DNA from: Nematostella vectensis
Lineage: Eukaryota
Assembly: GCF_932526225.1 (NCBI RefSeq)
Contig: NC_064047.1
Coordinates: 1,753,027-1,817,026 of the forward strand
Direction: 5' to 3'
DNA length: 64,000 bases
Position numbers and translations under genes: made by a program. Below, piece after piece: positions 22,579-50,945 of this stretch; position 1 is the stretch's first letter; each line of letters opens with the position of its first letter. The notes below the pieces were generated by a model that saw nothing but the letters and a program-made list of their open reading frames with translations, was not told the origin of the DNA and did no database searches.

Positions 22579-22589
22579 GTAACGCCTCA

Positions 22590-23488: not shown

Positions 23489-23935
<447 letters not shown>

Positions 23936-24889: not shown

Positions 24890-25302
24890 GTAAGGCGGCA
24901 CCTGAGTTTGAGTATTCCTCGATCCGAACAAACTTAAAAATAGCTTGTGTGAATCATGAGCCTCGGAAGTGTGGAATTGGCTTTCGATCACATCCTTTTT
25001 TTGTCTGTTTATTTTATCTACCAGCCCAATTCAGCCGATTAAAATGTGCATAAAAAAATTCATATCCTCACTTGGTTGCTTTATCTAACGGAAAAAGCCA
25101 TCAGGGTCAAATCCTTCGTTAAAATTCTGATTGACGGGGTATAGCACAGCGATTATGATGATGGACGGCTTTAACAATATTTGACTAAACGTTTCTTAAT
25201 CCATGGTTTGTTATTAGCCGATGGAATTGGATACGATATATATAGTTGGGTAGCGCAGAATAGGAACCTCTTCTCCCTTTGATGTAATTTCATACATCGC
25301 AG

Positions 25303-25436
25303 TTTGCGGATTTGAGGCCTTCATCAATGGTAAACACATCATTGGTGAGGTAAAAGAAAAAGAACAAGCACGCAAAGAGTACCGGGAAGCAATCAGCGCA
25401 GGGCATGGGGCCTATCTCATGGACGAGGAGACACCA
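25303..25436 (+). CDS. PARP4: PARP4-like exon 18 (VIT)
   Basis: VCGFEAFINGKHIIGEVKEKEQARKEYREAISAGHGAYLMDEETP is near-identical to the PARP4 VIT domain. Confidence 0.95.
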
Positions 25437-25926
25437 GTAAGTATACGCATGCGCGACCTGCATAGAGCAGCTTTGCCATGATTGTAATTCCTAAATGTAT
25501 TCTAAAATCACAAATGTATAAGACAAAACCGATAGCTTTGCTTTCTTTTTTTGTCCCTAGCTTGCTTCACATATAATTTTAACCTGTTACTCTTAAAAAA
25601 TATCATATTTTATGTTGATTCATAAGTTATGTTGATATATTTAAAGATATTGTAAGGGTAGCATTACTAAAGCATATATTAGTTTATCGTATTCTAATAC
25701 AACTTTATATATTGCTTGTTAAATGTTTTGCATATAACTGACATTTTTTGAGGAAGTACACACGTTATGACACCTTTCTTGTACTTATACAAGAAATAAG
25801 TCTCGAGATCTCGAAAGTCTCGAAACTTAAGTCTCGAAAATGTTTTGACAGCATCCCATGATCAGCTGAAATTCAAAGTTTAAAATGATGGCTTGCTGCA
25901 AGTTAGATTATTTATTTCCTTTACAG

Positions 25927-26132
25927 GACGTGTTCACCGTGAACGTAGGTAACCTACCCCCAGCTGCAAGCGTGCTCATTAAGATCACCTATGTTGCCGA
26001 ACTCACCGTGGAGGGAGAACTCATCTGCTTTCGGTTACCAGGAAGCGTGGCGCCATGGCAGCGCACGCAAGCGCATGATGACGTCACTCAAACAGATGTG
26101 GATACTATTTGTGTTGATGAGGAGAATCAAAG
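25927..26132 (+). CDS. PARP4: PARP4-like exon 19 (VIT)
   Basis: DVFTVNVGNLPPAASVLIKITYVAEL.. resembles DVFTVSVGNLPPKAKVLIKITYITEL... Donor aag|gttaag. It is followed by the 4.65-kb satellite intron. Confidence 0.9.
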
Positions 26133-26139
26133 GTTAAGT

Positions 26140-30800: not shown

Positions 30801-30853
30801 CTGTAAAATGAATGTATGAATGATTGAATGTATGAATGATTGTTTCTTTGTAG

Positions 30854-30935
30854 CAACACCTCAGTTCAGGTCTCTGTTGAAATGCCATTTGAGATCCGTG
30901 CTATTCTTTGCCCTGGACACGATGTCAAGGTCAAG
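30854..30935 (+). CDS. PARP4: PARP4-like exon 20
   Basis: SNTSVQVSVEMPFEIRAIL..KVK resembles ..SFSLTMSIEMPYVIEFI... Confidence 0.8.
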
Positions 30936-31291
30936 GTAAGTTCCGGTAACGAGGGGGCGAGGATCGTTGCTTGTAACATCTGGCCGTCAGGGGAAGAGAC
31001 GGGGTTGCATGTTCAAGATGTCCGATTGTCAAGCACAGGGTGTTATGCGTACGGAGAAGCCTAAAGGGTGGAGGGTGGGGCTAAGGTCAAGGTTAAGCAG
31101 CACCAAAATAACATGACGAGCAGACGTAAAAACTATATACTCAGACGTAAAAACTATAAACTCAATATGCGCTATGCTAGTAGCTGGGAATTAGGGAGTG
31201 TGGAATTCAGACATTTGGCTGTTTGGGCCATGTAGAGGGCTCATGTAGTATTTTTACTTGTCTGCTATTTAATGTGCATTTTCGTTTCTAG

Positions 31292-31429
31292 CGAACCTCA
31301 ACAAAGGCTGTCGTAGAGATGGCGCCTGGAGGAACCCTCGGAAGCGGATTCCAGCTTCAAATCCAATTGGCCGAAATTCATGTACCCCGGATGTGGGTGG
31401 AGCGACATGATACCGAGGCTGATAGCCAG
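31292..31429 (+). CDS. PARP4: PARP4-like exon 21
   Basis: ..EIHVPRMWVERHDTEADSQ resembles ..AAYLPRMWVEKHPEKESEA. Confidence 0.85.
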
Positions 31430-31737
31430 GTTTGATTGCCACCTGCCTACTTTTTTGCGATTATCATTATCTACTGCAAATATGTTGTAAGCTGCAAAGC
31501 AGTACTTGTGAATACAGCAAGCTCAACCCTAGTAATTTTTCTGAATGTCACTGGAACGTAAACAAAAATGAAAGTCAAAGAAAACGCAGTTGCTTGATTG
31601 CCGTGTTTGTGTTTAACCGATTTTGTGCATGTATTTCTCTTGCCCTCGCGTGTACGTCCAAGTCATAACCAAGCTCAAAGCCTGGTACTTCAAGCCCTTA
31701 GCTTGGTTCTTCACCTTATGTGTTATTTCTATTGTAG

Positions 31738-31830
31738 GCGTGTATGTTAGCCTTCTACCCTGAGTTCGAGTCTGGGCCACCGCACCATGTCGAGGTCATC
31801 TTCGTCCTTGACGCGTCATGCTCTATGAAG
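31738..31830 (+). CDS. PARP4: PARP4-like exon 22 (vWA start, MIDAS motif)
   Basis: ..HVEVIFVLDASCSMK carries a DxSxS motif. Confidence 0.85.
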
Positions 31831-32082
31831 GTAAAAGCTAGTCCTTGGCCTTAATAGAATGGCAAAAAGAGTTAAAGATGTCTAAGTTATTTGACAAGGT
31901 GAATGTGGTTGAGTGCAGTCGGATCATGGACAGGGAAGAACATGGGCTTATTTTACTACTCGCGCGCTGTCAAACTTGCACATTGTTTTTTTTTTTTTCA
32001 AATTGAGAGTCAAATTGAGATTGAGTGCAATAAAGTTTTTTGACAAAATGTGTCTTTGCTTACCACGTCTACTGCTTGCTAG

Positions 32083-32176
32083 GGAAAAGCCCTCCAAGAA
32101 GCCAAGAAACTGACCCTGATGTGCCTGAGTCTTATGGAGGAAGAATGGGCGTTTAACATCGTTGTGTTTGGAAGCA
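32083..32176 (+). CDS. PARP4: PARP4-like exon 23 (vWA)
   Basis: GKALQEAKKLTLMCLSL..FNIVVFGS resembles ..AKQIALHALSL..VNIIQFGT. Confidence 0.85.
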
Positions 32177-32184
32177 GTGAGTGG

Positions 32185-32422
32185 AGCAGTGCTCAACTAT
32201 TAAAGCCACATTGTCACCAGTTTACTTCCGGAGGTCCGTCGGAAACCTCAACCGTTAAAAGACAAAAGAATCTATTAGAATCCGCGCTATAAAACGGGCC
32301 ATCCGCTCTAAACTATCAGTCAAATCCTTTTAAATATTGAAATATTTTCCGCAGTTTCCGTTAAAAATCATCAGAGATAGTTACGTAATTGACCGGAAGT
32401 AAACTGGTAACAAGGCGGCTTT
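32185..32422. mobile_element. MITE family A (about 240-250 bp; 27-bp TIR aagccgcattgtcaccagtttacttccgg; TA target-site duplication, Tc1/mariner-Stowaway-like), copy 1
   Basis: The TIRs are present at both ends and are flanked by TA. Confidence 0.85.
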
Positions 32423-32706
32423 AATAACGGGAATAATGGGAAGGATATCGTGCATAAGGCCTTAGTACATTACTTTTAAATTTATTTGTTGTGTGTCTCT
32501 TTATCTTATTTGCTCTTTTCTCGTGGTTTTAGACTGCATTTAGTTGGTTGGTTTAGTTGCATTTAGTTGGTCTGTCCGTTATATATCTTACTCTTATTCA
32601 GTAGTAGCACGTGAAAGGGAGGAATGCAAAGGGAGGCACAAGGCACTCCAACAAAACCAAAAGCGATCCAAACTTATTAGAACTCTGTCCCTTACATTTC
32701 TTTTAG

Positions 32707-32780
32707 ACTACAGCGAGCTTTTTACCCAGAGTCAGAAGAAGGACAAAGAGACAGTCGCTAGAGCTGCCAAGTTCGTCAAG
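32707..32780 (+). CDS. PARP4: PARP4-like exon 24 (vWA)
   Basis: NYSELFTQS.. resembles GYKELFSYP... The phase is consistent. Confidence 0.75.
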
Positions 32781-33270
32781 GTGCAAACAGGATATCCTAA
32801 TATTGTTTTTTTCTGTGCTTTGAGATGATCCTCTTAACAAATGGGATCTGGGGAGAATGACCTGGGACTTCATACTTCCGGACTCTTTCCAAAAGAAACT
32901 TTGTCAAATGTCAAGAACTAGGCTTTCGCAATATATTTATGAGAGATTAAGTCGTGTCATAACGAAAAATGCAGTCTGGATAATTTTGAAGCTCTTCGGT
33001 TCGAGTAAAAACGATACTTAACGATATTTAACTTTATATTATGGCGATTTTAATATAGATTTACTCAGGTATGGAGAGGTGCGTCAGAAAAAATGTTAAC
33101 TTAGCTAAAAATGAGGCTTCAAGTTTTCACTCAGCTGTGATTCAAGGTAAACATCGTACGACTCTAGCCTAGTCCCAGGCGATGACTAGGCTTCGGGCGT
33201 CTGTTTACCACAGGAGTCCCAATGAAATACGCCTCTTACTGGACTAATACGCCCCCGTTTTGCTCCACAG

Positions 33271-33467
33271 TCCGTCAAAGCTGTCAAGGGAAGTACCGAC
33301 CTCTGGCGCGTACTGCGCTCGCTGTACCTGCTCCGATGCAACTCAACCGCTGACTACCCGAGTAATGTGTTCCTCTTCACCGACGGTCACGTGACAGAGG
33401 AGAGCACGACACTGGCGTATATCCGGGATATTAGGTTGCGCACGCGCGTGTTCACGTTCGGTGTCGG
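33271..33467 (+). CDS. PARP4: PARP4-like exon 25 (vWA)
   Basis: ..GSTDLWRVLRSLYLL..NVFLFTDGHVTEESTTL..TRVFTFGVG resembles ..GNTDFWKTLRYLSLL..NILLVSDGHLQDESLTL..TRLFACGIG. Confidence 0.9.
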
Positions 33468-33474
33468 GTAAGAT

Positions 33475-34045
33475 GGCAATGTCACCAGTTTACTTCCGGC
33501 GATTACGTAACAGTCTCAGATGATTTTTTACGGAAACGCGAAAAAACGCGGATGGCCTGTTGAATGTCCTGTCAATCCCTAGTATCAATTAACAAACTAT
33601 TTTGTCGATATTTAACAGAATTTATGGAGAAGATTACGAATATCGACGTCTTTTTGCCCGTTTCGGCCTAAAAGTGGACATTTTGGCGATTACAATTTTA
33701 CTTCCGGTCGAATATACGGCGGAAGTAAATTCACCCTATAGGTTTTAACACTAATTTGATGGTTTTTCCGTTTAAATAAAACGATCTTCATAGATTTCAA
33801 AGGCTACGAAAAATATATCATCGAAACAATTGATCTCTTCGACATATTATCACTGCAAAAAATCTTGGATGCAAATATTCTCAAACTTAGTTTGTTTTGA
33901 GTATAAGTCTAGGTCACTTTTTCACGTACTCTACGCCAGATTTTCTATTATATCCGGATAATAGTGCGGATTATAATAGGTTATTTTGTCTTTTGTCGGT
34001 TGAGGTTTCAATCGGCCCTCCAGAAGTAAACTGGTGACAATGCGG
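33475..34045. mobile_element. MITE family A copy 2, about 570 bp, with extra internal sequence (composite or nested)
   Basis: Outer TIRs caatgtcaccagtttacttccgg .. ccagaagtaaactggtgacaatgcggc. An internal partial TIR pair lies at about 33700-33740. Confidence 0.7.
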
Positions 34046-34125
34046 CTACAATTTCTGTTTTTGATAGTCAACAAATGTACGTTTTAGCAAACTGTTGGAT
34101 TGTTTGATCACGTGATTTGTTTTAG

Positions 34126-34225
34126 ACCCACATGCAATCGGCACTTCTTGCGTTCTATGGCCCGCGTGGGGGCTGGGGCCTATGAGCTGTTTGACTCTAA
34201 AGTCAAGTCAAAGTGGGAGCGAAAG
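34126..34225 (+). CDS. PARP4: PARP4-like exon 26
   Basis: PTCNRHFLRSMARVGAGAYELF.. resembles STANRHVLRILSQCGAGVFEYF... Confidence 0.85.
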
Positions 34226-34312
34226 GTATGATGGTCGTACATATTTGGTAACGAACCGCGAGTTTTCTCGCTGTTTTTGTTGGTGTTGGTGAGTTGACTG
34301 ATTGTGTTTTAG

Positions 34313-34408
34313 GTGGAATCGCAACTCTCTAAAGCAAGGCAGCCAGTTTTGACGTCAGTGAAGGTTGCCTGGCAACAACATGACAGCTATGCTAAGCCAC
34401 CAGTGCAG
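34313..34408 (+). CDS. PARP4: PARP4-like exon 27
   Basis: ..SVKVAWQQHDSYAKPPVQ resembles ..SVSVKWQQLNPDVPEALQ. Confidence 0.8.
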
Positions 34409-34535
34409 GTAAAAAATAAAAATAATAAACAATCACGATTTTTTTATGTTTTTCTATACTCGGATCAAAGCTGGTATATCCGCTGCCAAGGCATTAATCC
34501 CTGCTATTTAAATTGTCAATCTCTTTTTCACTTAG

Positions 34536-34610
34536 GCTCCACATGATATTGTGTCGCTTTTCAACGGTTCAAGACAAGTAGTCTACGGACTCGTCGACAA
34601 CTGTACTCAG
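34536..34610 (+). CDS. PARP4: PARP4-like exon 28
   Basis: ..VVYGLVDNCTQ resembles ..LVYGFIPHCTQ. Confidence 0.8.
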
Positions 34611-34937
34611 GTGCGTTGCTAGGTGATGATGACAATTGTATCCAAGTGCGTTGCTAGGTGATGATTGGAAGTTGCTAACTTCTCTATGAAAATTTGAGGC
34701 AGTACAGAAGAACGGACATCCGGGGTTACCATGAATCGCCATGAAAAATATCCTAGCAGTTTTATTGCTAGATATTTAATTGCGCAGATTATATAAGAAT
34801 GGCAGATTAAATAGCCTTTGTACCATCGCTTGTGTACTACTTACTTATTGTGAACTCCCTTACAATGCTTCAACGCTATTTTTGTTGTTTGCTCTATAAT
34901 AAGAGTTACCAGCTGGTTTAAAGTTCCTCTCTTTCAG

Positions 34938-35018
34938 GCGTCTTTGACAGCAGAAGTTGACGGTAGGGTAGTATCGACAATGGTGTCCACTTCCGAACTC
35001 AGCATCACAACCGGCAAG
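34938..35018 (+). CDS. PARP4: PARP4-like exon 29
   Basis: ..VVSTMVSTSELSITTGK resembles ..FRTMVSTTELQKTTGT. Confidence 0.85.
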
Positions 35019-35154
35019 GTACATTACTGATTGATGTACTCAGAATTGGTTGCTAACGATGGCCCTGGTGAATATCGGTTTAATAGGGGCTACGGGCACA
35101 AGTTTGACCTTTGATGAACTGTTATGTGCAGTTACGTTTTAATTATAAAACAAG

Positions 35155-35465
35155 CACAGGCCCGTAACCAGGATTTTATATGGGGGGTAGGGTGCGAAAT
35201 CCGAAAAAGTAAATTGAGAAAGAACAAAAAAGTTTTTTTTATGCCTTTGCAGTATCTCCACAGGACGTTTATTGTCGGATTTGGCCAAAAAAAAGTATTT
35301 TATGGATTGATGACATACCAGAATGATCTATAGCTTTATAGTTTTGTCTACAAATAGCACGTCTATTGAGAACAAAAGAGGGACTCTCGGTCGTTGTGGG
35401 GGGTGGGGGTGCTCGCACCTCCTGCACACACCCCTCCCCCCTCTGGGTACGGGCCTGAAGCATGT
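35155..35465. mobile_element. MITE family C, copy in PARP4-like intron 29
   Basis: acaggcccgtaaccagg .. ctgggtacgggcctg. The internal sequence (tttatagttttgtctacaaatagcacgtct..) is shared with the 1720 copy. Confidence 0.85.
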
Positions 35466-35794
35466 CATTATGACTCATAAGTATGACTTCTCTCCGCACA
35501 TTCACGACTGCCGCCTATTCTGAGAAGGGCCAAAAACATATACCATATACCAAGTACTATGACAAGCAATTCAATCTCCATATGAGGTGGAAGCCAAATG
35601 CTAAACTACAATTTCAGCACAACTAGTGAAATTTTGAACACCTTTGTGTGTGGTATGTCTTCTGACAAATCAGACGCGAAATTTCAGACACTGAGACTTG
35701 TTGAAACATGTTTCCGGAGTTCACGGTTTTGTTGTTCACGCTGTAAAAGTGGATTTGAAAGATGTGGAATAATACCTGTTTCTTTTATCCCCAG

Positions 35795-35875
35795 GTTCTC
35801 CACCAGTTGACAGCGCGAGCGATAATTCGCGATTGGGAAGAGGGAAGCCTGGACCCGAACCACACCAAGCATGAG
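35795..35875 (+). CDS. PARP4: PARP4-like exon 30
   Basis: VLHQLTARAIIRDWEEGSL resembles MIHKLAARALIRDYEDGIL. Confidence 0.85.
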
Positions 35876-36756
35876 GTATAACACATGTAATGGAATCATT
35901 CCAATAGAAAATTGGAGATTGTTGGCGATCTATTTGAAAGAATCGATAATGAAACTTTAGCAGGCAGATTTTTCATCAATTTTTAAGAAATAATAGTAAA
36001 AAAATCGGAGAAAGTTCTCATTATTTTTTTCTAGATATAGATCATAGAATTGACCAATATTGCAGGGGCGGCGGAAGGGGAGGGGCAGGGAGGACGCCAG
36101 AGCGGATGCTTTTTTATATATGAACTTTTTTTTAAACCAAGCGGTACATATGTAACCGACAACAAATTTGTTTAACAGTTTAAAATCCCGCGCATAAAAA
36201 CCTAGGTTATCCCCTGCGTTCTTATAAACAGCGCTTAAGAATTTGAAACCACCACCCACCCCTCTCCCCATGCAGCCACCAGCCACCCCTCCCCCTGAAA
36301 CGACTACCCACCCCTCCCCCCAACTTCCCCCCCCCCCCCACCCCCCACTTATGGGACCACTCCGCCGCCCCTGTATTGTCAGGGAGTTTTGTGACCAATT
36401 CATTATTAAGAATAGATAATGAATCTAAGAAAGCTCTCGACTTATTATAATTGTCGTGAAGTGATAAATAAAACTTGCATCAAGACATCTCCTAACATTT
36501 TGAGTGGTAAACTCGCGCCAAAATAAACACAGAAATGTTTCCGACCGTCACACCAGAGAGCGATAAAAATGACCTTTTTCAATGAAAATACCCTTCATGC
36601 TGATTCATAAGCGCTGAGTAAGTTATTTTGCCGCCAAAAGCCGGAGCGCGCGCAAGTTTGCCGCCCAAAAAGTCATGTGATTTCTTAGTGAAAGTTTTCT
36701 TTGTCACTTCATGACAATTAGAATAAAACAACTGAAAATCCATGTTACGTTTGTAG

Positions 36757-36858
36757 ATGGCAAAGAGAGACATGAAGGATTTCATCATTTCTCTCAGCAA
36801 GCGCTTCTCCATCGTATCTCAGTTTACAAGTTTTGTGGCAATCGAACACAGAAAAAAG
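36757..36858 (+). CDS. PARP4: PARP4-like exon 31
   Basis: ..IISLSKRFSIVSQFTSFVAIEHR resembles ..IIKLSKENSLITQFTSFVAVEKR. Confidence 0.9.
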
Positions 36859-37657
36859 GTATGCCGAATATGGTGTGTGTGTGTGTGTGTGGGGGGGGGG
36901 GGGGGGTGGGACGGTTGTTCTATGTTCCCCATTGACAGTCCAAATATATACTGTAGAAGCCTTAACCGCAAAGGATATTCTCAAATTGCAGTCGCCCTGG
37001 CTTGAGTCGTCCTTAACCTTTTTAGAAAATAGGCGTCGTGGGGGCCTGATTAAGTTCGGGTTGTTGCGGATGCCGGAGATCAAAATTGTACGTTTAGGGT
37101 AATAGGTACAAACCAGAACCCTCGGTTGACTTTACGATTAGAGGAAGATAGGGTTGTGGGGTGATTAAGTGGGTCTATCAGCTGCCATTCTGTCATCCTA
37201 GAAGAAAATCAAATGTAAGAAAGCAAAATGTTTCATGGTTGGTTTGGAAAAATATTGTGATGTTTTCCATCAAATTTAGTAAAAGAAGTGTAACACTTCG
37301 TTCATTATTTTGTTGCCAATATTAAGCCCTTGTCAGCCACACCTTTGTTATTGGTTTCTCCTAATATGGGAAGTAATCATGAAAAGGAATCTCAAAATAA
37401 TCAGCCAAATATAAAATCTTATTGTTTATTTACTGCACTTAATGGAAAATATTGCAAGAGCTTCCCCAATGTAACCGATGGAAATGGATGCTCTCTTGCG
37501 CTTGGTAATTTGCTAGAATGACAGAACGGCGGCTGACAGATGCTCCTCAATGGAACAGGTGTGTCTGTTTATGGCTCTGAACAAGCTGAACAACGACGTG
37601 ACGTTGCAAGGATCGAACCTGTCCCTTAGTTTTTGCGATTCAATTTTCTTTTCTCAG

Positions 37658-37792
37658 GATGAAAAGTTTGACGCTAGTCTGGGGCCGAGTATCGATGAAC
37701 TGGTGTCACATGAGGACGTTGACGTCATTCCATACGTCAGCTGGGAGGAGCCTGAGTCACGTGATGTGGGCAAACCTGAATCATCATCCAAG
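37658..37792 (+). CDS. PARP4: PARP4-like exon 32
   Basis: ..ELVSHEDVDVIPYVSWEEPE.. resembles ..ELIAKEDVDFLPYMSWQGEPQ... Confidence 0.85.
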
Positions 37793-38548
37793 GTTTGCAA
37801 TGTGTTTTTCTAGTGTGAAAACGATTGGCATAATGTTTTGTATAATACTTGGAAGTAAAGTATCTGGCGTTTTGTGGTTGTGACTCTATAAGCACGAGAA
37901 GCTCGCGATGACAGGTTAGTACAAAAAAACTAATAAATAACCAAAAAATTATAAACAAGCATGCAAACGACCCATTTAACATGGACTTTTTGCGGTGGTT
38001 TTTATCGTAAGATATTCCGGTTTTTTTTCGTTTCTTTTCTTTGAAACCTTCATTAGAAGACAAACCTCTATGAATTTATTACTGTAAGTATGTTCTTGGT
38101 GTCGGCATTCCTAGTAAAGTGTTCGATTTGTCGACGTAGATTCCACAAGCTTGTTCCACACAGGCATATGATAACCGTCTCTTGGCTCCTGCTGTACAAA
38201 AATGAAAGCTTCACTAGACAGACAAAATCCGGCTGCCAGTCTGGCAAACAGTAAGACATCAGCTGTCACTCATAAATATGGCCCAAGATTGAACAGCTCC
38301 AACCTTAGAAAATGTAATGCCCACTGGTTTTCAAATTTTGTATTTGTCAAGTATGTAAACTATATGATACATTACCTGTAATCTAGCCCCCTCCACAGGC
38401 GTTTTTAGCGACACCTGCCTTAAAACGCCTGCGAGGGAGGCTACCTGTAATCCAGCAGAAATCTGCAAAAGGATAAAATCTACTAAAGAAACAATACATC
38501 GAATGCTAAAAATGGCATCTGTTATCATTGAATTACTGTTCCGCTTAG

Positions 38549-38692
38549 TCGACAGGTGACCGCGTGGCCGGACTTGTCTCAGAGGCCCGGGTACTAGAGC
38601 GCTTCTCGGTGCTTCAGGCTGAGACGCTATACAAGCGAGCCTGCGATACTGCCTTATCAGCGGAAAGCCCTGACAACCGGGCGACATACAAG
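38549..38692 (+). CDS. PARP4: PARP4-like exon 33
   Basis: Bounded by ttag| and |gtaacc; phase 0/0. Resemblance to the PARP4 region ..GLGVLPAFTSNLERGGV.. is loose. Confidence 0.55.
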
Positions 38693-38984
38693 GTAACCCA
38701 GTTTCTCTCCGTCGTAACTCATGTTGCAATCGTCTTTACTAAATAACCAAAAATGTACTACTGCGAAACAGACTCGAAAATCGATTCAGAAAAGCTACCG
38801 GAAAAACTACACGAAGCGATTGGCCAAAAATAGGGAGACTGGGGCGAGACCGTTTTTTACACAACTAAGCTCGGCTATTCCAGCTCGGCTGTTTCGCCTT
38901 TCACGCAACTAGCGCCTGTTGGGTAGGCTAGAAATGTGCGAAATCATAAGTTAGGAAGTAATAAAATGAATGTCAGAGGAAGGC

Positions 38985-39185
38985 ATCTCTAAGCACCCCC
39001 TGCACCCCCGAACGCACCCCCCACACACACACACAACGGTCCATTTTGGTTCTCAATAGACGTGCTATTTGTAGACAAAACTCAAAATCATAAGCTAGAT
39101 CACTATGTAACTATGTAGCCAGATCCGACAATAAACGTCCCATGGAGATACTGCAAAGGCATAAAAATCCCTTTTTTGTTCTTTC
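38985..39185. repeat. MITE family C truncated copy, reverse orientation
   Basis: Contains caatagacgtgctatttgtagacaaaactc, the reverse complement of the family C core. Confidence 0.7.
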
Positions 39186-39503
39186 GGAGGTGGTTAGATT
39201 TTTATCAGTAGGAGGTAAATTTATTTTACAATATAATCAGACGCACAAAGACTCACAAAAATCTTCAAAAGAGATGGAGCGTTAGGTAATTGGAAGAAGA
39301 AGAAGAAGAATCGTACCCTGTCAAATCTGATAGTTATTGACTTAGCCTTCTAAACTAGACGCCATATTGAAAATGACCTAGAAAACTTGGGGACGAGGAT
39401 GTGGTTACCAGGTCCTTCTGGGTAATTTCAAGATGGCGCTATTAAATTACACGTAATTCCAACGTCAAATCCCTGACCGAGACTTTTCAATGGTTTACCT
39501 CAG

Positions 39504-39597
39504 GCCTTCCTATCGCTGGCCCAGTTCTACGTTGACGTGCATGGCGACCTCCAGAAGGCAGAGGCACTTACGATGATGCTGCATGGGGCTCTAGGTG
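39504..39597 (+). CDS. PARP4: PARP4-like exon 34
   Basis: Bounded by cag| and |gtacgt; phase-consistent; open frame. Confidence 0.5.
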
Positions 39598-39959
39598 GTA
39601 CGTCATCGTCTTTTTGTCAGGATTTGCTTCGCCAAGTCCTCGTGTCCGTTTACTTACTTTCTGTTTGTTGCTTATTTTGTGTTATAATTATCAGGGCTGT
39701 AACGGACATCGAAAAACTGTGGGGGGGGGGGGGGGGGGGAGGGGGCACAATACATGAAATGAAGAAAGCTGGAGGGGCACAAGAAAAAAAAAGGGGATAC
39801 TGTCCCCCCTCTGGCCCCTGGCCCCCGGTCGCTAGGGCAATGATTTTATTAGTGTGAAGGAATTCTCCAAATGAATAACTAAAAATAAAAATCAGGATGT
39901 TAAGGTATAGCCGGATACATTACCGGTGAGGGGGAAGGGATGGAGGGTGGGCGGGGAAC

Positions 39960-41707
39960 GTAAATGAACACTTTTCCTTTATTTCTGTTAGGGGTCGAAC
40001 ACTATGAATGAACACTTTTCCTTTATTTCTGTTAGGGATCGAACACTATGAATGAACACTTTTCCTTTATTTCTGTTAGGGATCGAACACTATGAATGAA
40101 CACTTTTCCTTTATTTCTATTAGGGATCGAACACTATGAATGAACACTTTTCCTTTATTTCTGTTAGGGATCGAACACTATGAATGAACACTTTTCCTTT
40201 ATTTCTGTTAGGAATCGAACACTATGAATGAACACTTTTCCTTTATTTCTGTTAGGAATCGCACACTATGAATGAACACTTTTCCTTTATTTCTGTTAGG
40301 GATCGAACATTATGAATGAACACTTTTCCTTTATTTCTGTTAGGGATCGCACACTATGAATGAACACTTTTCCTTTATTTCTATTAGGGATCGAACACTA
40401 TGAATGAACGCTTTTCCTTTATTTCTGTTAGGGATCGAACACTATGAATGAACACTTTTCCTTTATTTCTGTTAGGAATCGCACACTATGAATGAACACT
40501 TTTCCTTTATTTCTGTTAGGAATCGCACACTATGAATGAACACTTTTCCTTTATTTCTGTTAGGGATCGAACATTATGAATGAACACTTTTCCTTTATTT
40601 CTGTTAGGGATCGAACACTATGAATGAACACTTTTCCTTTATTTCTGTTAGGGATCGAACACTATGAATGAACACTTCTCCTTTATTTCTATTAGGGATC
40701 GAACACTATGAATGAACACTTTTCCTTTATTTCTGTTAGAGATCGCACACTATGAATGAACACTTTTCCTTTATTTCTATTAGGGATCGAACACTATGAA
40801 TGAACACTTTTCCTTTATTTCTGTTAGGAATCGCACACTATGAATGAACACTTTTCCTTTATTTCTGTTAGGAATCGCACACTATGAATGAACACTTTTC
40901 CTTTATTTCTGTTAGGGATCGAACATTATGAATGAACACTTTTCCTTTATTTCTGTTAGGGATCGAACACTATGAATGAACACTTTTTCTTTATTTCTGT
41001 TAGGGATCGAACACTATGAATGAACACTTCTCCTTTATTTCTATTAGGGATCGAACACTATGAATGAACACTTTTCCTTTATTTCTGTTAGGGATCGAAC
41101 CCTATGAATGAACACTTTTCCTTTATTTCTGTTAGGGATCGAACACTATGAATGAACACTTTTCCTTTATTTCTGTTAGGGATCGAACACTATAAATGAA
41201 CACTTTTCCTTTATTTCTGTTAGGGATCGCACACTATGAATGAGCACTTTTCCTTTATTTCTGTTAGGGATCGAACACTATGAATGAACACTTTTCCTTT
41301 ATTTCTATTAGGGATCGAACACTATGAATGAACACTTTTCCTTTATTTCTGTTAGGAATCGCACACTATGAATGAACACTTTTCCTTTATTTCTATTAGG
41401 GATCGAACACTATGAATGAACACTTTTCCTTTATTTCTGTTAGGAATCGCACACTATGAATGAACACTTTTCCTTTATTTCTGTTAGGGATCGAACACTA
41501 TGAATGAACACTTTTCCTTTATTTCTGTTAGGGATCGCACACTATGAATGAACACTTTTCCTTTATTTCTGTTAGGGATCGAACACTATGAATGAACACT
41601 TTTCCTTTATTTCTGTTAGGGATCGAACACTATGAATGAACACTTTTCCTTTATTTCTGTTAGGGATCGAACACTATGAATGAACACTTTTCCTTTATTT
41701 CTGTTAG
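39960..41707. repeat. Minisatellite of about 44 bp x about 40 copies, derived from the exon 35 acceptor (polypyrimidine tract, AG, and the first exon bases)
   Basis: Unit tgaatgaacacttttcctttatttctgttag|ggatcgaacacta. The true junction reads ..tttctgttag|gtatcgaacacgatg. Confidence 0.9.
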
Positions 41708-41798
41708 GTATCGAACACGATGTCTCCTCGCGATCCAACTTTGACGATCTGCTTGAGCATTTGCGACAGGACAGTTCGTATAGCGACGAAGTGGGGAG
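41708..41798 (+). CDS. PARP4: PARP4-like exon 35. Its acceptor and first about 12 bp seed the upstream 44-bp minisatellite.
   Basis: Bounded by ctgttag| and ag|gtaggg. Only one frame is open (IEHDVSSRSNFDDLLEHLRQDSSYSDEVG), and it is the phase-compatible one. Confidence 0.5.
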
Positions 41799-42618: not shown

Positions 42619-42998
42619 GCTGGTTGCTGAATTTAACCCAATGAAGGATATAAACAAATCCAAACGAAAAGTCATAGCTTCTCTTTTTCCAAATGTCGAT
42701 TATCCATGGAGCCAAACTGTAGTTAATAAACTGTTTGAAGCGTGCCGTTCTGAATCCAGCACGGAGACTGGTTCAACAGCTAGTTCGACGTCCAGTTCCG
42801 AAAGCAGTTCGGAAGAAGAACTGTCAGATAACTCGGAAGATTCCGACTGGGGTAGCGACGAGTTTTACGAAGACAATATAGACGATGAAGTTTACCAAGA
42901 TGCCGTCGGCGAGGAAGAAGAAGAGGAGGGCGAAGATGATGTGTATGGCATGTGCCTTGAAGAAGCCGAGGAAGTAGAAAGATCAGAGGCACCAACGC
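42619..42998 (+). CDS. PARP4: PARP4-like exon 36 (Ser/acidic-rich)
   Basis: Bounded by cacag| and |gtaagt. Open frame of 126 codons ending in an acidic tract (SSSESSSEEELSDNSEDSDW..EEEEEEGEDD), comparable to the acidic region of the PARP4 tail. Confidence 0.6.
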
Positions 42999-43289: not shown

Positions 43290-43393
43290 GCACTTGTTAT
43301 CGATGTTGGCTCCCACATGTGGAAGGTTGGGTTCGCAGGTGACGACGCGCCTAAGGGTGTGTTCCCGCCAATTGTCGGCCGACCTCGCCACCA
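43290..43393 (+). CDS. Actin-derived cassette exon A, spliced in-frame into the PARP4-like gene
   Basis: [34 protein letters not shown] matches actin residues about 8-41 ([35 protein letters not shown]). It ends at the conserved actin 41/42 intron position. Bounded by ttttag| and cag|gtaaac. Phase 1 in, phase 0 out. Confidence 0.6.
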
Positions 43394-43401
43394 GGTAAAC
43401 T

Positions 43402-43405
<4 letters not shown>

Positions 43406-43484
<79 letters not shown>
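43406..43484. repeat. (TA)n microsatellite, about 40 units, in the intron after actin-like exon A
   Basis: Direct inspection. Confidence 0.98.
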
Positions 43485-43487
<3 letters not shown>

Positions 43488-43734
43488 TATTTCTACACCA
43501 TTGCAGCTATCATGGCTGAATTACAAGTGAGAGGTCGTCACACAGAAACTAACAATAGCGCACAGTCACAAAATCTCTAAACCTACAAGTTTTAGCTTGC
43601 GGTCCTATTATTTTCTCATTTCCTGATCTCAAATTATATCCATGTTGGACAGTTGTCATGTTATTAACCACAGATTTTAAGGGTTCAACAGTTTTAGCTC
43701 TTGCCATAAATTTATCACGAATCTTATCACGTGG

Positions 43735-43850
43735 ACCATCATGTACCAAGCACGTGACCTATCACGTGAACCATCGTGTGCCAAGCACGTGACCTATCAC
43801 GTGGACCATCATGTGCCAAGCACGTGACCTATCACGACTTGCCTCGTTAA
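43735..43850. repeat. 36-bp tandem repeat x 3 carrying six CACGTG palindromic E-box motifs
   Basis: cacgtgacctatcacgtggaccatcatgtgccaag repeated. CACGTG occurs at about 43742, 43764, 43778, 43800, 43814 and 43836. Confidence 0.85.
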
Positions 43851-44178
43851 AAACTCTCTATAACCCTGTTTACATTTTTATAAGGAAATTACATACCATG
43901 TTCGGAAGTCCATTTTAACCTTTCCCCCTGACTTTGACTATCGACCTAGAACTGTGTTAAACGATAGTTTTAGCGTAAAATATAAAAGATTATACCCATG
44001 GAGCCAAACTAGTTGATAACCTGTTTGAAGCGTGCAGTTTTGTCTAGTTCCGAAAGCAGCCCCTAAGAAGAAGATTAGGAGGACTATTCTGACTGGGATA
44101 GCGAAAAAAAAAGAAAGAATAGGAAACTGTTTTTAGATCTAGAACTGTATTCATGCGTGTGCTGTCCTTTGCCTGCAG

Positions 44179-44371
44179 GGCGTGATGGTAGGAATGGGGC
44201 AAAAGGACTCTTATGTGGGTTGGGAGGCACATTCCAAGCGTGGTATTCTTTCTCTCTCTACCCCCCAAAAACGTGAAGCTCGCCCCACTCCTCCCTTGCA
44301 AGATCGCCCCCCTCCTCCCTTGCAAGATCGGCCGCCGCCTGCGATGGAAGGAAGGGCTTTGACGAAGGACC
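44179..44371 (+). CDS. Actin-derived cassette exon B: actin residues about 42-65, then a divergent Pro-rich stretch
   Basis: [26 protein letters not shown] matches actin [26 protein letters not shown], followed by [32 protein letters not shown]... Bounded by ctgcag| and c|gtaagt. Exons A plus B total 297 bp, a multiple of three. Confidence 0.55.
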
Positions 44372-46369: not shown

Positions 46370-46885
46370 GAGTTATCTGGCCTATCGAAGAGGCACCATT
46401 AGACCACACAGCATCAATTGACCTGGAGGAGCAGGAAGACTTGTACGTAGATATGGACAAAGGGGAAGTCTTGGATGACGACGGATTGTTTGAGGCGATG
46501 TGCAATAATGCCCAAAAGGCGGCATCTTTGGCCATGGGCAAGCGTCGCCAAGATGTGGACCAGCTGACGTTGGACAGTTACGATGATATACATGAAGTCC
46601 TGCCTAGTAACACCCAAGTCGCAGCAACTTTGGACACCGACGACATGTATGTAGATATGAAAAACCGTGCTACAAGTTCTGCTTTGAAGGAGAGGGCCGT
46701 TAGCTATGATATCCAAGATAGCTTGTGTGAGGTTGCTGAAGATGCTGTTAAGGAGGAAGAAGCCGAACGTCCAATCGCAATCTTTGGCTTAGACTCGTGT
46801 ATCGCACGCGTGTCATCATCTGAGGAAAAGAGTTCGTTGTATGACGAGATTCCATCCCCACCAAATAGGCCATTCAAAAAAAAAG
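46370..46885 (+). CDS. PARP4: PARP4-like exon 39 (acidic). The donor is uncertain: gtaggt at 46886, with an alternative near 46903.
   Basis: Bounded by ctttcag|. Phase-compatible with both exon 36 and cassette exon B. Open frame of 171 codons, acidic. Confidence 0.5.
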
Positions 46886-47870: not shown

Positions 47871-49312
47871 CCCCTCTTACGGATATACTCAGTGCTAATA
47901 CCGGACTCCTCCCATTCGCAGTCGCCAACATACCGTCACCCAAACCGCGGCCACCTAGGGCCTCTAAGATAGCCGCACCACCGGCTCCATCCCTACAAGC
48001 TGTCTGTATCGACCTCCCGGAACCTCCCCTGAAGGCTGGGGACTCACCGTTGAAAAGATCTGTAAAAGCACCACTACCACCTCCTCCACCTCAACAAGCT
48101 TCCCGGATCGACTACCGGGCTTCATATGGAGCCGCACCACCGGCTCCATCCCTACAAGCTGTCTGTATCGACCTCCCGGAACCTCCCCTGAAGGCTGGGG
48201 ACTCACCGTTGAAAAGATCTGTAAAAAAACCACTACCACCTCCTCCACCTCAACAAGCTGCCCGGATCGACTACCGGGCTTCATATGGCGCTCCACCTCT
48301 TCCTCCGAAGAGAGGTGGAGGCCCACCTCTTCCTCCGAAGAGAGTCGCCAACATACCGTCACCCAAACCGCGGCCACCTAGGGCCTCTAAGATAGCCGCA
48401 CCACTGGCTCCATCCCTACAAGCTGTCTGTATCGACCTCCCGGAACCTCCCCTGAAGGCTGGGGACTCACCGTTGAAAAGATCTGTAAAAGCACCACTAC
48501 CACCTCCTCCACCTCAACAAGCTTCCCGGATCGACTACCGGGCTTCATATGGAGCCGCACCACCGGCTCCATCCCTACAAGCTGTCTGTATCGACCTCCC
48601 GGAACCTCCCCTGAAGGCTGGGGACTCACCGTTGAAAAGATCTGTAAAAAAACCACTACCACCTCCTCCACCTCAACAAGCTGCCCGGATCAACTACCGG
48701 GCTTCATATGGCGCTCCACCTCTTCCTCCGAAGAGAGGTGGAGGCCCACCTCTTCCTCCGAAGAGAGGTGGAGGCCCACCTCTCTTCGGTGCCATGGCTT
48801 TGAGGACAGGTGCCCCCTCAAAGGCATCGAAACCAAGTTTTGGTGGAAGAGGTCAACCACAGGTGTTCGCAACATCTGCTAGTGAAATCCTTCACCCGAG
48901 GCTAGCCCGAACTCCATCTGAACTCGCGCCCAAAGGAGTCCCATCACAGACTAATGATGAAGCTCCAGTTTTTATGTCCCGACTACAACTGTTGGAAAGT
49001 ATTCGCGCGAAGAAAAAGACCAAGGAGACCGACAGAGAAGATATTATGAAACAGGATGACTCAGGTGAGGCCGATATTTTACGCAGAGAAGCCCACCAAC
49101 ATAGCATGGAAACAGAGCTAGAAGCTGATAGGAATGAGGCTGAAATGGGTGTTCGTCCGGTACCACGAAAGCGTGGTAAGAGGATGCTGGAAAAGAAGGC
49201 GGCGGAGCAGAAAAAGGAGGCGATGGAAGAGCCCTCGGAATCGTTGCAGAACAGAATGCGGAAATGGATGACCGCTGACAAGTTGTTGGAGCTGTTTGCG
49301 TCTCAGCATAAC
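47871..49312 (+). CDS. PARP4: PARP4-like exon 40: Pro-rich, with an internal 423-bp in-frame tandem duplication and a WH2-like stretch
   Basis: Acceptor cccccag| (alternative at 47921, same phase). Open frame of 480 codons. The 141-aa unit VANIPSPKPRPP..PPLPPKRGGGPPLPPKR occurs twice (47921-48343 and 48344-48766). Donor aac|gtaagt. The PARP4 tail is likewise Pro-rich. Confidence 0.65.
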
Positions 49313-49820: not shown

Positions 49821-49917
49821 GATGGCTATTGGAGTGAGAAAGAACTGGAGGTCGCCTTTAGGATAGACTGCTCGTTCTTGTCAAGGCTTCTTGTGAATGC
49901 TGGTGCACAAAGTCTAG
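49821..49917 (+). CDS. PARP4: PARP4-like exon 41 (C-terminal MVP-binding-like)
   Basis: ..LLELFASQHN|DGYWSEKELEVAF..AGAQSLG resembles PARP4 ..WTELLSLQTEDGFWKLTPELGLIL..KGIQSLGV. Confidence 0.8.
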
Positions 49918-50045
49918 GTGAGAGGGGCACGCATGATAAAAACACGGAAAAACATGAAAAAAACATCAACGATGAATATGATGATGATGATGGTCGTGCT
50001 GCTGCTGTTGATGATGATGATTGCGATTGCGATGATGATGATGGT

Positions 50046-50240
50046 GGTGGTGACGTGATGGTGATGGTGGTGGTGATGATGATGGTGATGGTGATGGTGA
50101 TGGTGATGGTGATGGTGATGGTGATGGTGATGGTGATGGTGATGGTGATGGTGATGGTGATGGTGATGGTGATGGTGATGGTGATGGTGATGGTGATGGT
50201 GATGGTGATGGTGATGGTGATGGTGATGGTGATGGTGGTG
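50046..50240. repeat. (GTGATG)n hexamer microsatellite, flanked by (GATGAT)/(GACGAC) tracts, in the intron after exon 41
   Basis: Direct inspection. Because the period is a multiple of three, it produces artefactual poly-VM / poly-IT ORFs on both strands. Confidence 0.95.
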
Positions 50241-50576
50241 GTGGCGGCGGCGGCGAGGACGACGACGACGACGACGAAAGCGAAGATGACGACGATGATG
50301 ACGATGATGATGATGATAATCATAATTTTACGGTGATGGCAGTGACTAGGGCTCTAATATATAAGAATATATTAGAGCCCTAGGTATCACCTCACCCTCC
50401 AGAATACACAGTAAAATGTAGATATATTCTAAGACTATCTATGACAATGCCAATTACATATAGTGTAAGTGTGTCAGCTTTGCTTGGGTCGAAAATGTCG
50501 ACGGCCGGCGATGCTTTGTATCATTAGGATTAAGTTAAACCCCTACAAACCCTTCAACCAAACTTTCGCCTTACAG

Positions 50577-50842
50577 GTGACGAAGCGTTCGAAACAATCC
50601 TTAAGATGCTGACAACCATTATCACACTGGCCATCCTCAAGACTTACCTACCTGATCAGTTCCCAGTTTCTCTTGTCCAAGGCGTATCGAGTGAGGGCCT
50701 TGTGACTAGTGAATGGAGAAACCAAGTCGGGAGGGCGCTATCATGGCTAAGAAAGATGGACCGAAAGATGCCGTCCGTTTGCTCCCGTCTAGAGCTTGGG
50801 CCTGACTGGGACGTTGTGGCAAAGGGTATAATTGATGACAAG
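50577..50842 (+). CDS. PARP4: PARP4-like exon 42 (C-terminal)
   Basis: ..KMPSVCSRLELGPDWDVVAKGII resembles PARP4 ..QYPSICPRLELGNDWDSATKQLLG. Donor aag|gtacat. Read-through would add KVHLMIGVR* (stop at 50867), so either a short read-through tail or a further 3' exon is possible. Confidence 0.8.
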
Positions 50843-50945
50843 GTACATTTGATGATAGGGGTGCGCTGAGGAGCCTGGAACATTGAGCGCCCCGCAGGCT
50901 CAAATTCCATAAACAACAACCAAACATTTAACCAAGCGTTTATTA

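Follow-up and report, generated by a model that had tools for sequence, protein, structure and literature searches.

An ancient actin-derived two-exon cassette in the C-terminal linker of Nematostella vectensis PARP4, a candidate displayed bait

Introduction

Why a gene for a vault PARP should carry two exons that read as actin, how long they have been held there, and what a fragment of actin might do in such a protein are the questions raised by the locus described here. What PARP4 and the vault particle do has, to our knowledge, gone without explanation for decades. A preliminary description of this stretch of Nematostella vectensis DNA had interpreted the two exons as a cassette that is, by implication, a recent capture, that can be included or skipped, and that is associated with a neighbouring WH2/thymosin-like segment. 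Here, the cassette was compared with actins, with PARP4 orthologues from other animals and with the linker in which it is embedded, and the possible roles that follow were weighed.

Results

The PARP4 locus and the cassette exons

The window, that is, the whole stretch of 64 kb that was analysed, is the PARP4 (vault PARP) locus of N. vectensis. Residues 1-1364 of RefSeq isoform X1 (XP_048577466.1, P0387) were mapped by tblastn to 12842..41798 on the forward strand, an interval that holds the upstream exons for the BRCT, PARP regulatory and catalytic, VIT, VWA, post-VWA and helical regions. Pfam placed BRCT at residues 4-84, PARP at 413-587, VIT at 648-758 and VWA at 897-1051 of this protein, and recognised PARP_reg also, the order BRCT, PARP catalytic, VIT, vWA being that of PARP4. 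Catalytic-type motifs are present at residues 460 (FHAS), 499 (GIYFAD) and 568 (DDEFVVYD), which, by comparison with PARP1 motifs rather than by structural alignment, may supply the H-Y-E residues.

The cassette is preceded by exon 36 (42619..42998, forward strand), a Ser-rich and acidic exon (...EEEEEEGEDDVYGMCLEEAEEVERSEAPT) that ends in phase 1 and whose flanking junctions, 41798/42619 and 42998/43291, reproduce XP_048577466.1. Its acidic run lies directly before the cassette and resembles the acidic N-terminus of actin; acidic runs precede the cassette in other taxa too. Exon 37 (43291..43394, 104 bp, forward strand), assigned by translation, tblastn and junction match, encodes actin residues 8-41 and is bordered by an AG acceptor at 43289-43290 and a GT donor at 43395. 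The start at 43290 given in the preliminary description is the G of the acceptor, the true first base being 43291. A phase-0 intron of 784 bp follows at actin codon 41/42 (43395..44178, forward strand, from its splice sites), within which lie a (TA)40 microsatellite and 3.2 copies of a 35-bp repeat. Exon 38 (44179-44371, 193 bp, forward strand; acceptor ...TGCAG/GGC, donor GACC/GTAAGT) is composite: tblastn and residue alignment assign its first part (44179..44265) to actin residues 42-70, including the D-loop, and translation and junctions define a proline-rich tail (44266..44371) that has no actin similarity and exits in phase 1.

Together, the two exons comprise 104 + 193 = 297 bp of open frame, entered and left in phase 1, and the joins from exon 36 (end 42998) to exon 37 and from exon 38 to exon 39 (start 46370), both in phase 1, reproduce XP_048577466.1 exactly. 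The junctions match RefSeq isoforms X1-X5, bearing out the preliminary description as to an in-frame, actin-derived cassette of two exons in the C-terminal linker, its length, its open frame and its split at codon 41/42. The same description had proposed that inclusion is optional, and the frame does permit skipping, but the cassette is included in all five annotated isoforms and no skipped form is annotated. Judged by the RefSeq models, the source of transcript support here, exons 37 and 38 of N. vectensis PARP4 are coding and constitutively included.

Similarity to actin and loss of the actin fold

When the window was searched by tblastn with beta-actin, residues 7-41 were matched with 77% identity (E=1.7e-12) and residues 41-70 with 83% identity (E=6.8e-10). 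The Pfam Actin family (PF00022) matched the cassette with 47.9 bits (cutoff 27; E=9.5e-13) over positions 7-65 of its 410-position profile, the match falling at residues 1490-1555 of XP_048577466.1, C-terminal to the VWA domain. Comparison with PDB actins by phmmer gave E=4e-25, and the cassette agrees with ACTB 8-67 at 49 of 60 residues. By these alignments the resemblance to actin is far beyond chance. No second actin-like segment was found by tblastn anywhere in the 64 kb window, which marks the cassette as a piece of actin rather than an actin gene nested in the locus. A phmmer search for other hidden homologies in the Nematostella linker returned only actins among the best 60 of 134 PDB matches.

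The segment retained, actin residues 8-70, comprises the first beta-hairpin of subdomain 1 together with subdomain 2 and its DNase-I-binding loop (D-loop). The complete four-subdomain fold of some 375 residues is absent, about 85% of it being missing, and nucleotide-binding loop 1 (D11-N12-G13-S14-G15-L16) reads D-V-G-S-H-M in the Nematostella cassette; none of the eight cassettes compared keeps either N12 or G15 of this ATP loop. An AlphaFold2 model built on a 24-sequence alignment had a mean pLDDT of 46.5 and did not predict an autonomous fold, a low-confidence result of this kind being no positive proof of anything. With the fold mostly gone, the ATP-loop residues lost and independent folding not predicted, the cassette cannot act as an actin.

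Distribution, age and intron history

Homologous cassettes with the same N-terminal boundary were found in PARP4 of Hydra, the sponge Dysidea, the bivalves Mytilus, Magallana and Saccostrea, and the flatworm Macrostomum, in each case at the identical position, with the post-VWA and helical region and then an acidic run coming before it. Independently annotated PARP4 orthologues with the cassette at this position come from at least four phyla, and the cassette is also present in a continuous ORF of 867 aa on a 4.2-kb contig (P0246). The comparison with orthologues proposed in the preliminary description therefore favours a genuine PARP4 element, and the recent capture that it implied is contradicted, the cassette being judged from this sequence record to be older than the sponge/cnidarian split. 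A recent copy of Nematostella actin was considered separately and ruled out by 72% nucleotide identity, 46% third-position identity and a pS of 0.71. The cassette is not universal among animal PARP4 proteins: BLASTP and Pfam did not find it in PARP4 of Sycon, Lytechinus, Branchiostoma or approximately 100 vertebrates, and in Acropora digitifera both the cassette and the C-terminal exons are absent within 10 kb downstream of the PARP4 gene model. The Desmophyllum sequence (L003) ends short of this region.

The preliminary description had derived the cassette from an intron-bearing genomic actin gene, and the evidence on this point is divided. A processed, retrocopy-derived insert would be marked by an intronless copy; the Nematostella cassette is interrupted at codon 41/42 by the 784-bp intron, and a phase-0 intron at the same position is found in the cassette of the sponge Dysidea avara (L006, 25679/25929), which has an additional intron at 18/19. 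Against this, the bivalve cassettes have no intron at 41/42, and neither does the one Nematostella actin gene examined.

Selection and the location of constraint

Comparison of the cassette with a Nematostella actin gene, the dN/dS check that had been suggested for it, gave a saturated pS of 0.71, a pN of 0.15 and a dN/dS of about 0.07. Since synonymous sites are saturated and 49 of 60 residues are nonetheless kept, a neutral fragment is excluded, and selection on the cassette is, by this estimate, purifying. The constraint is centred on the D-loop: in residues 35-55, 17 of 21 positions are invariant across the eight cassettes and identical to actin, as against 5/14 in residues 8-21, 2/13 in residues 22-34 and 1/12 in residues 56-67. 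In the sequences aligned, the cassette appears as a nearly frozen island within an otherwise variable linker.

The linker downstream and the C-terminal domain

Exon 39 (46370..46885, forward strand, from Pfam and junctions) encodes a linker that is acidic and matches no Pfam family, and in which there are two degenerate motifs resembling the ribosomal P-stalk tail, VLDDDGLFEAM (aa 1628) and PIAIFGLDS (aa 1727). A synaptobrevin-like piece in this exon gave a weak match only (E=0.049) and was not taken as real. Exon 40 (47922..49312, forward strand, from junctions and repeat analysis), the largest exon, encodes a proline-rich linker. Within it 423 bp are duplicated in tandem with 99% identity, and 159-bp repeats are nested in the duplication. 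In Nematostella, Hydra, Mytilus and Saccostrea the cassette is succeeded by proline-rich tracts.

The putative WH2 stretch of exon 40, LLESIRAKKKTKET, lies downstream of the poly-proline tracts. Its short helix and succeeding basic patch are like those of WH2/thymosin-beta, but the LKK[TV] motif lacks its Leu, T standing in its place, and Pfam returned no family, WH2 included, at E<=1 for exon 40 or at E<=10 for a 57-aa peptide. It is located approximately 560 residues downstream of the cassette, not adjoining it as had been described, and inspection of the Hydra sequence by eye revealed nothing similar; the WH2/thymosin assignment was accordingly abandoned.

The C-terminal domain comes from the final pair of exons (49821-49917 and 50577-50866, followed by TGA; 49821..50869, forward strand, from junctions and BLASTP). 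By BLASTP this domain shares 32% identity (E=1e-15) with a fish PARP4 C-terminus that carries PF26156, and about 70 vertebrate PARP4 C-termini match it; the Pfam family itself, PARP4_MVP-ID (PF26156), gave no match to the Nematostella C-terminus at E<=10. On these alignments the domain is regarded as a homologue of the region through which vertebrate PARP4 interacts with MVP. The MVP residues that contact PARP4 are conserved only in vertebrates (Lodwick et al. 2025, PMC12280208), so that vault residency of cnidarian PARP4 is an extrapolation from the 32% C-terminal identity. In vertebrates the PARP4 linker reaches into the vault lumen from its C-terminal anchor (PMC12280208). The Nematostella cassette is placed, on the domain assignments given above, in a long, disordered tether between the VIT-VWA body and an MVP-interaction-like domain.

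Fragments of other proteins in PARP4 linkers and in a sister family

Pieces of ubiquitin, the HSP70 substrate-binding domain, 14-3-3 and the VAMP SNARE motif were recognised in PARP4 linkers of other species, with the qualifications that only fragments of conserved families are recognisable, making such an array prone to detection bias, and that some pieces may be gene-model fusions. The ribosomal P-stalk tail motif MGFGLFD was present in 10 of 297 proteins, where shuffling predicts 0.25. In addition, a non-PARP family that has no catalytic domain joins the same cassette to the same C-terminal domain, and often carries the C-terminal actin peptide SGPSIVHRKCF as well. The occurrence of cassette and C-terminal domain without catalysis indicates that the cassette is tied to the anchor and not to catalysis.

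Discussion

The main observation is that near-perfect mimicry of actin over 60 residues has been kept in PARP4 orthologues from sponges to molluscs, amid a fast-evolving and disordered tether. What the mimicry might serve is addressed by a reading to which we give about even chances, namely that the cassette, as a mimic of the actin N-terminal and D-loop surface, is displayed as bait on the PARP4 tether. A protein that recognises the D-loop stretch of actin would bind or modify the cassette in its place and would thereby be tethered to PARP4; the C-terminal domain would anchor the tether in the vault, and the client, whether a protein of the animal itself or an effector from a pathogen, might then be ADP-ribosylated or captured in the vault lumen.

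An extension of the displayed bait, which we put forward tentatively and think will probably not hold, is that the flexible tether of the vault PARP and its sister family displays an evolving series of baits taken from the most conserved hub proteins of the cell, by which pathogen toxins and effectors that target those hubs are trapped or sensed. The pieces assigned to such an array, with the same doubt attaching to the assignment, would be the actin N-terminus and D-loop, the actin C-terminal peptide, ubiquitin, the HSP70 substrate-binding domain, 14-3-3, the VAMP SNARE motif and the P-stalk tail. If true, the array would be an animal counterpart of the integrated decoys of plants and would provide a function for the vault, the Nematostella actin cassette being one ancient element of it. 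Even if the bait reading is wrong, the cassette is a clear case of the ancient capture of a domain fragment at the level of exons, maintained by selection, and the recent, optional, WH2-linked module that had been assumed stands corrected.

Among more specific explanations, an integrated decoy or trap is doubtful. The D-loop of actin is a target of toxins, and the cassette would copy this attacked loop, its binding, cleavage or modification either neutralising the effector or signalling its presence; a need to copy an unchanging target closely would account for the invariance of 17 of 21 residues. VAMP, the P-stalk, ubiquitin, 14-3-3 and actin are classical toxin targets or cofactors (of clostridial neurotoxins, ricin and Shiga toxin, ExoU, ExoS, and ACD and protealysin), and pieces of each, in the form of the SNARE motif and the stalk tail in the first two cases, occur in PARP4 linkers across phyla. 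Support for a decoy is circumstantial throughout: the same proteins are simply among the most conserved and abundant in eukaryotes, which would favour their detection, and the literature searched gave no link of PARP4 or vaults with decoys. We know of no effector that binds PARP4 and of no immune phenotype in cnidarians. On the other side, the vertebrate linker is under recurrent positive selection that has been read as the mark of host-pathogen conflict (Daugherty et al. 2014, PMC4038475).

A part in actin regulation, the view taken in the preliminary description, is unlikely. The D-loop makes a longitudinal contact in F-actin, and the cassette could by this means insert its own D-loop in the barbed-face cleft of actin as occurs in the filament. 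It is similarly unlikely that the cassette forms a module with poly-proline (profilin/EVH1 ligands) and a WH2-like helix that regulates polymerisation, or that tethers PARP4 and vaults to the cytoskeleton. The concentration of conservation in the D-loop and the proline-rich tracts that follow the cassette in all four genera named above are consistent with such a module, and the available passages of Perina et al. (2014, PMC4245714) read the actin domains of PARP4-like proteins as a cytoskeletal link. However, the WH2 component is remote from the cassette, unrecognised by Pfam and without a counterpart seen in the Hydra sequence; the ubiquitin, HSP70, 14-3-3, VAMP and P-stalk pieces, which often lie beside the actin piece, are left unexplained; and, should the tether lie inside the vault lumen, filaments could not reach it.

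An intramolecular role, in which the catalytic domain of PARP4 uses the cassette as a pseudo-substrate or automodifies it, or in which the cassette packs against another part of PARP4, is very unlikely. PARP4 automodifies, and the cassette is held on a flexible tether of the same polypeptide as the catalytic domain, but the non-PARP family has cassette and anchor domain with no catalytic domain to be served. Finally, a relic devoid of function or an artefact of annotation, with an intronic actin pseudogene fragment pulled into gene models by homology hints, is an extremely improbable account of the cassette, for although the segment is short and gene predictors do use protein homology, its open frame, canonical splice sites and matching phases, its equal position in orthologues of at least four phyla and in the 867-aa ORF, and the retention of its residues at synonymous saturation all argue against this.

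Comparison with known systems

The preliminary description considered an actin module on a vault PARP to be undescribed, a view that is overtaken by Perina et al. (2014, PMC4245714), who had already found PARP4-like (clade 5) proteins to carry additional actin, 14-3-3 and ubiquitin domains; given that report, as far as its available passages go, novelty is partial. Those passages present domain cartoons, mainly of amoebae, Capsaspora, Salpingoeca, lancelet and sea urchin, and the proteins drawn in them share with Nematostella PARP4 the form of a VIT-vWA PARP with an extra Pfam match to actin, 14-3-3 or ubiquitin C-terminal to vWA, the match in Nematostella being to actin. The 14-3-3 and ubiquitin families of that survey recur in the animal PARP4 linkers analysed here. 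Relative to the portions of the survey available, the present analysis adds the delimitation of a 60-residue fragment, the D-loop-centred invariance, the presence in sponge, cnidarian and mollusc, and the shared intron; the HSP70, VAMP and P-stalk pieces are not described in those portions.

The vertebrate PARP4 linker, encoded by the largest exon (human exon 30), is disordered and positively selected (Daugherty et al. 2014, PMC4038475). It is like the Nematostella linker in lying between the VIT-vWA body and the MVP-binding C-terminus and in being disordered, proline-rich and variable in length, exon 40 being the Nematostella equivalent. It differs in that it is fast-evolving and has no recognisable homology, whereas the cassette is nearly frozen.

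In the integrated decoys of plant NLRs (RRS1-WRKY, RGA5-HMA) and the tripwire regions of NLRP1 and CARD8, too, a piece copied from a host protein is carried within a larger one and has stayed close to its source; all of these belong to proven immune receptors with known effectors. The homology of the cassette to actin and the invariance of its D-loop give it the same character at the level of sequence, whereas immune function, effector binding and signalling would in its case be putative. The POTE-actin fusion genes of primates, in which a complete and recent actin retrocopy is fused in frame, provide the remaining parallel. Both are in-frame fusions of actin sequence to an unrelated protein, but the PARP4 cassette comprises only residues 8-70, bears an intron, and is, by its distribution, at least as old as the common ancestor of sponges and cnidarians.

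Gene structure and actin similarity of the cassette

The best matches to the VIT domain encoded in the window were coral PARP4 proteins (72-79% identity), and peptides derived from the window, when used in an exhaustive HMMER search, returned P0241 (XP_032219397.2, 'protein mono-ADP-ribosyltransferase PARP4 isoform X2 [Nematostella vectensis]') at E=7.7e-249. The longest isoform, X1 (P0387; 2354 aa), spans positions 12842 to 50866 and contains BRCT, PARP, VIT and VWA domains and, at residues 1490-1555, a match to Pfam Actin. A junction search demanding GT/AG ends and exact reproduction of P0387 placed exon 36 at 42619-42998, exon 37 at 43291-43394 (104 bp; acceptor AG 43289-43290, donor GT 43395), exon 38 at 44179-44371 (193 bp), exon 39 at 46370-46885, exon 40 at 47922-49312, exon 41 at 49821-49917 and exon 42 at 50577-50866, followed by TGA, all on the forward strand. 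P0387 was reproduced exactly, and the exon structure proposed in the preliminary description proved to be the one used by the RefSeq models, of which the cassette exons, 37 and 38, are thus an already known part. The two-exon, actin-derived cassette was likewise borne out in sequence, exon lengths, phases and actin matches, although its start had been set at 43290, one base early.

A tblastn search of the window with beta-actin gave one match per cassette exon (E=1.7e-12 and E=6.8e-10). The Pfam Actin profile matched the cassette at positions 7-65 with 47.9 bits (curated cutoff 27; E=9.5e-13), phmmer comparison with PDB sequences retrieved many actins at E=4e-25, and the cassette agrees with human ACTB 8-67 at 49 of 60 residues. 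Judged by these sequence comparisons, the likeness to actin is beyond chance; the proline-rich tail that follows the actin-derived part of exon 38 is without actin similarity. The beta-actin search revealed no further actin-coding segments elsewhere in the 64 kb, and the cassette is therefore a fragment as opposed to a nested actin gene or pseudogene. The two exons total 297 bp and are phase 1 on entry and on exit, such that the reading frame would survive skipping, as had been suggested previously. However, no skipped isoform is annotated: the cassette is present in all five RefSeq Nematostella PARP4 isoforms, which differ only 3' of exon 39, and on the basis of these models it is a constitutive part of the protein.

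Two large satellites occupy PARP4 introns, one at 26159-30796, after a VIT exon (26-bp unit, ~179 copies, 85% matches, with long spurious ORFs in all frames), and one at 39963-41722 (44-bp unit, 40 copies, 96% matches), while an (ATGGTG)n microsatellite is located at 49978-50243 between the last two exons. Downstream of PARP4, a 303-aa open coiled-coil segment (54043-54951, forward strand), with weak, sub-threshold similarity to NEMO CC2-LZ (18.9 bits; cutoff 35.3), probably represents one exon of the gene that follows. Transposon remnants comprise a reverse-transcriptase ORF at 58678-59793 on the forward strand (RVT_1, 47.4 bits) and a KDZ transposase fragment at 10916-11302 on the reverse strand (25.0 bits, just under cutoff), and the tandem repeat that closes the window (63618-64000) retains an open frame, which encodes EEIEKNQHRPHHIPIVEKTNEEDK units. 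HlyIII-family (PF03006) genes are called on the same strand, in or just past the PARP4 range, in Acropora digitifera (L001 23329-26777) and Desmophyllum pertusum (L003 28880-37546).

Distribution, origin and selective constraint

A segment running from actin residue 8 to about 57/70 was found at the same place in PARP4 of Hydra vulgaris (P0243), the demosponge Dysidea avara (P0405), the molluscs Mytilus edulis (P0242), Magallana gigas (P0244) and Saccostrea cucullata (P0152), and Macrostomum lignano (P0268), and in the PARP4 proteins P0246, P0254 and P0408. All begin at the same actin residue and are preceded by the post-VWA and helical regions and an acidic run. Nematostella is thus not alone in having the cassette. 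PARP4 of Sycon, Lytechinus, Branchiostoma and vertebrates gave no sign of it, nor was it detected within reach of an Acropora PARP4 model.

The Dysidea cassette (locus L006) has phase 0 introns at codons 18/19 and 41/42, the latter being the Nematostella position. P0408 continues into non-actin residues directly after codon 41, and in P0254 codon 18 is followed by a V...Q insert of 19 residues, both apparently reflecting intron read-through; the Saccostrea and Mytilus cassettes are each contained in a single exon. The preliminary description had matched the split to what was presumed, from general knowledge as opposed to Nematostella actin genes, to be a conserved actin intron position, and had proposed descent from a genomic actin gene rather than a retrocopy. 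Given that the 41/42 intron is also found in Dysidea, such an origin is plausible as an ancient event, although P0093 (locus L004), the sole Nematostella actin gene examined, lacks this intron.

Comparison of the cassette with P0093 revealed 72% nucleotide identity (46% at third positions), with pN of 0.15, a saturated pS of 0.71 and dN/dS of ~0.07, estimated from 59 codons against this one paralogue, as opposed to the value near 1 associated with a lack of purifying selection. P0093 (L004 1501-1761) and the cassette (43291-44265) share the less common residues LVID (8-11) and ILSL (64-67) despite saturation at synonymous sites, a resemblance that could be coincidental or a vestige of the parental lineage.

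In an alignment of eight PARP4 cassettes, 17 of the 21 positions at actin residues 35-55 (strand, D-loop, strand) are invariant and all identical to actin, compared with 5/14 at residues 8-21, 2/13 at 22-34 and 1/12 at 56-67. Neither N12 nor G15 of the phosphate-binding loop survives in any of the eight, indicating that what selection maintains is the D-loop surface rather than an ATPase. AlphaFold2, run with 24 aligned sequences, predicted no autonomous fold (mean pLDDT 46.5), a result that is uninformative beyond giving no hint of a stable mini-domain. Together these data show that the PARP4 tether holds an ancient, selectively maintained segment of actin, residues 8-70, with constraint centred on the D-loop, lacking an ATP site or predicted fold.

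The C-terminal domain and other linker pieces

The Nematostella PARP4 C-terminus is 32% identical (E=1e-15) to that of a fish PARP4, which is annotated as an MVP-interaction domain. In human vaults, the PARP4 C-terminus is fixed to the inner wall and disordered regions reach into the lumen (PMC12280208). By inference, cnidarian PARP4 may also reside in vaults, although the MVP residues that contact PARP4 are conserved in vertebrates only (Lodwick et al.; PMC12280208). A second, non-PARP family of eukaryotic origin combines the actin cassette, often with the actin C-terminal peptide SGPSIVHRKCF, with a C-terminal domain homologous to the PARP4 C-terminus (27% identity, E=5e-15), showing that cassette and C-terminal anchor co-occur in two different architectures. 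Members (P0280, P0288, P0292, P0293, P0298, P0302, P0304, P0308, P0313 and P0314) are 600-860 aa in length, carry actin residues 8-70, often the peptide in the form SGPSIVHRK[CV]F and sometimes synaptobrevin or P-stalk pieces, and are encoded on ENA metagenome contigs (43-785 kb), with several paralogues sharing a contig.

In other species, the PARP4 linker, which joins the VIT-VWA body to the C-terminal domain, contains other recognisable protein pieces. These include ubiquitin (Dysidea, Biomphalaria, Sinanodonta, Batillaria, Plakobranchus, Mytilus coruscus and P0246), the HSP70 substrate-binding domain (Magallana, and P0246 at 151.8 bits; a weak, BLASTP-only match in Saccostrea echinata), 14-3-3 (Branchiostoma, P0290 and P0406), the VAMP SNARE motif (Saccostrea, P0290 and the lungfish Protopterus) and the ribosomal P-stalk C-terminal motif [DE]n-MGFGLFD (Saccostrea, Magallana, Batillaria, two teleosts and others). 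The last was present in 10 of 297 proteins, compared with 0.25 expected from shuffles; Nematostella exon 39 (46370-46885) contains only degenerate forms (VLDDDGLFEAM and PIAIFGLDS). Gene-model fusion may account for some of the architectures with several pieces, although P0246 is encoded by a single uninterrupted ORF of 867 aa on a contig of 4.2 kb.

P-stalk mimics are carried by P0152, P0171, P0193, P0204, P0244, P0246, P0293, P0299 and P0308; among these are members of the non-PARP family as well as PARP4 proteins from oysters, from a snail and from two teleosts, in which the mimic is in the linker. In Protopterus annectens PARP4 (P0263 and isoforms), the VAMP-like piece is 67% identical to VAMP2 39-78 and occurs in three of five isoforms (X1-X3, missing from X4 and X5), apparently an optional cassette in a vertebrate. 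In P0306, a 1185-aa VIT-VWA protein of the anaerobic protist Anaeramoeba flamelloides, actin residues 41-371 and a Glu/Lys-rich spacer precede a second, separate stretch of actin (7-48) and a C-terminal end resembling that of PARP4; the actin may be permuted, or the gene model faulty.

Possible function of the cassette

The reading that we favour, with evenly balanced confidence, is that the cassette is a displayed mimic of the actin N-terminal and D-loop surface, i.e. a bait, which would capture a D-loop-recognising client and thereby tether it to PARP4 or the vault. It is rather unlikely that the cassette and other linker pieces are decoys for pathogens. All of the listed pieces are classical toxin targets or cofactors, which fits this explanation, but the support is circumstantial and the list is subject to detection bias. 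The vertebrate selection signal fits also, the equivalent linker exon being disordered and showing recurrent positive selection (PMC4038475).

The idea in the preliminary description of a cytoskeleton-regulating module seems more doubtful still. Perina et al. (2014; PMC4245714) described appended 14-3-3, actin or ubiquitin-related domains on some PARP4-like proteins and took the actin domains as a link to cytoskeletal organisation; the supposition that an actin module had not been described in any vault PARP does not, therefore, hold. A regulatory role leaves the unrelated hub-protein pieces in linkers unexplained, and has lost the support of the WH2/thymosin-like stretch thought to lie beside the cassette, which gave no Pfam match at E<=10 and is ~560 residues away. 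That the cassette is a neutral relic or an artefact of annotation is scarcely credible, since the conservation data contradict it.

The searched literature yielded no account of the fragment nature and D-loop-centred invariance of the insert, its occurrence, with a shared intron, across a range extending from sponges to molluscs, the linker pieces of HSP70, VAMP and P-stalk type, the non-PARP sister family, or a bait or decoy interpretation. The Nematostella linker has itself expanded very recently, by a 423-bp tandem duplication (99% identity, with nested 159-bp repeats) in proline-rich coding sequence of exon 40 (47920-48767), which is reminiscent of vertebrate PARP4, where the largest exon varies in length and evolves fast.
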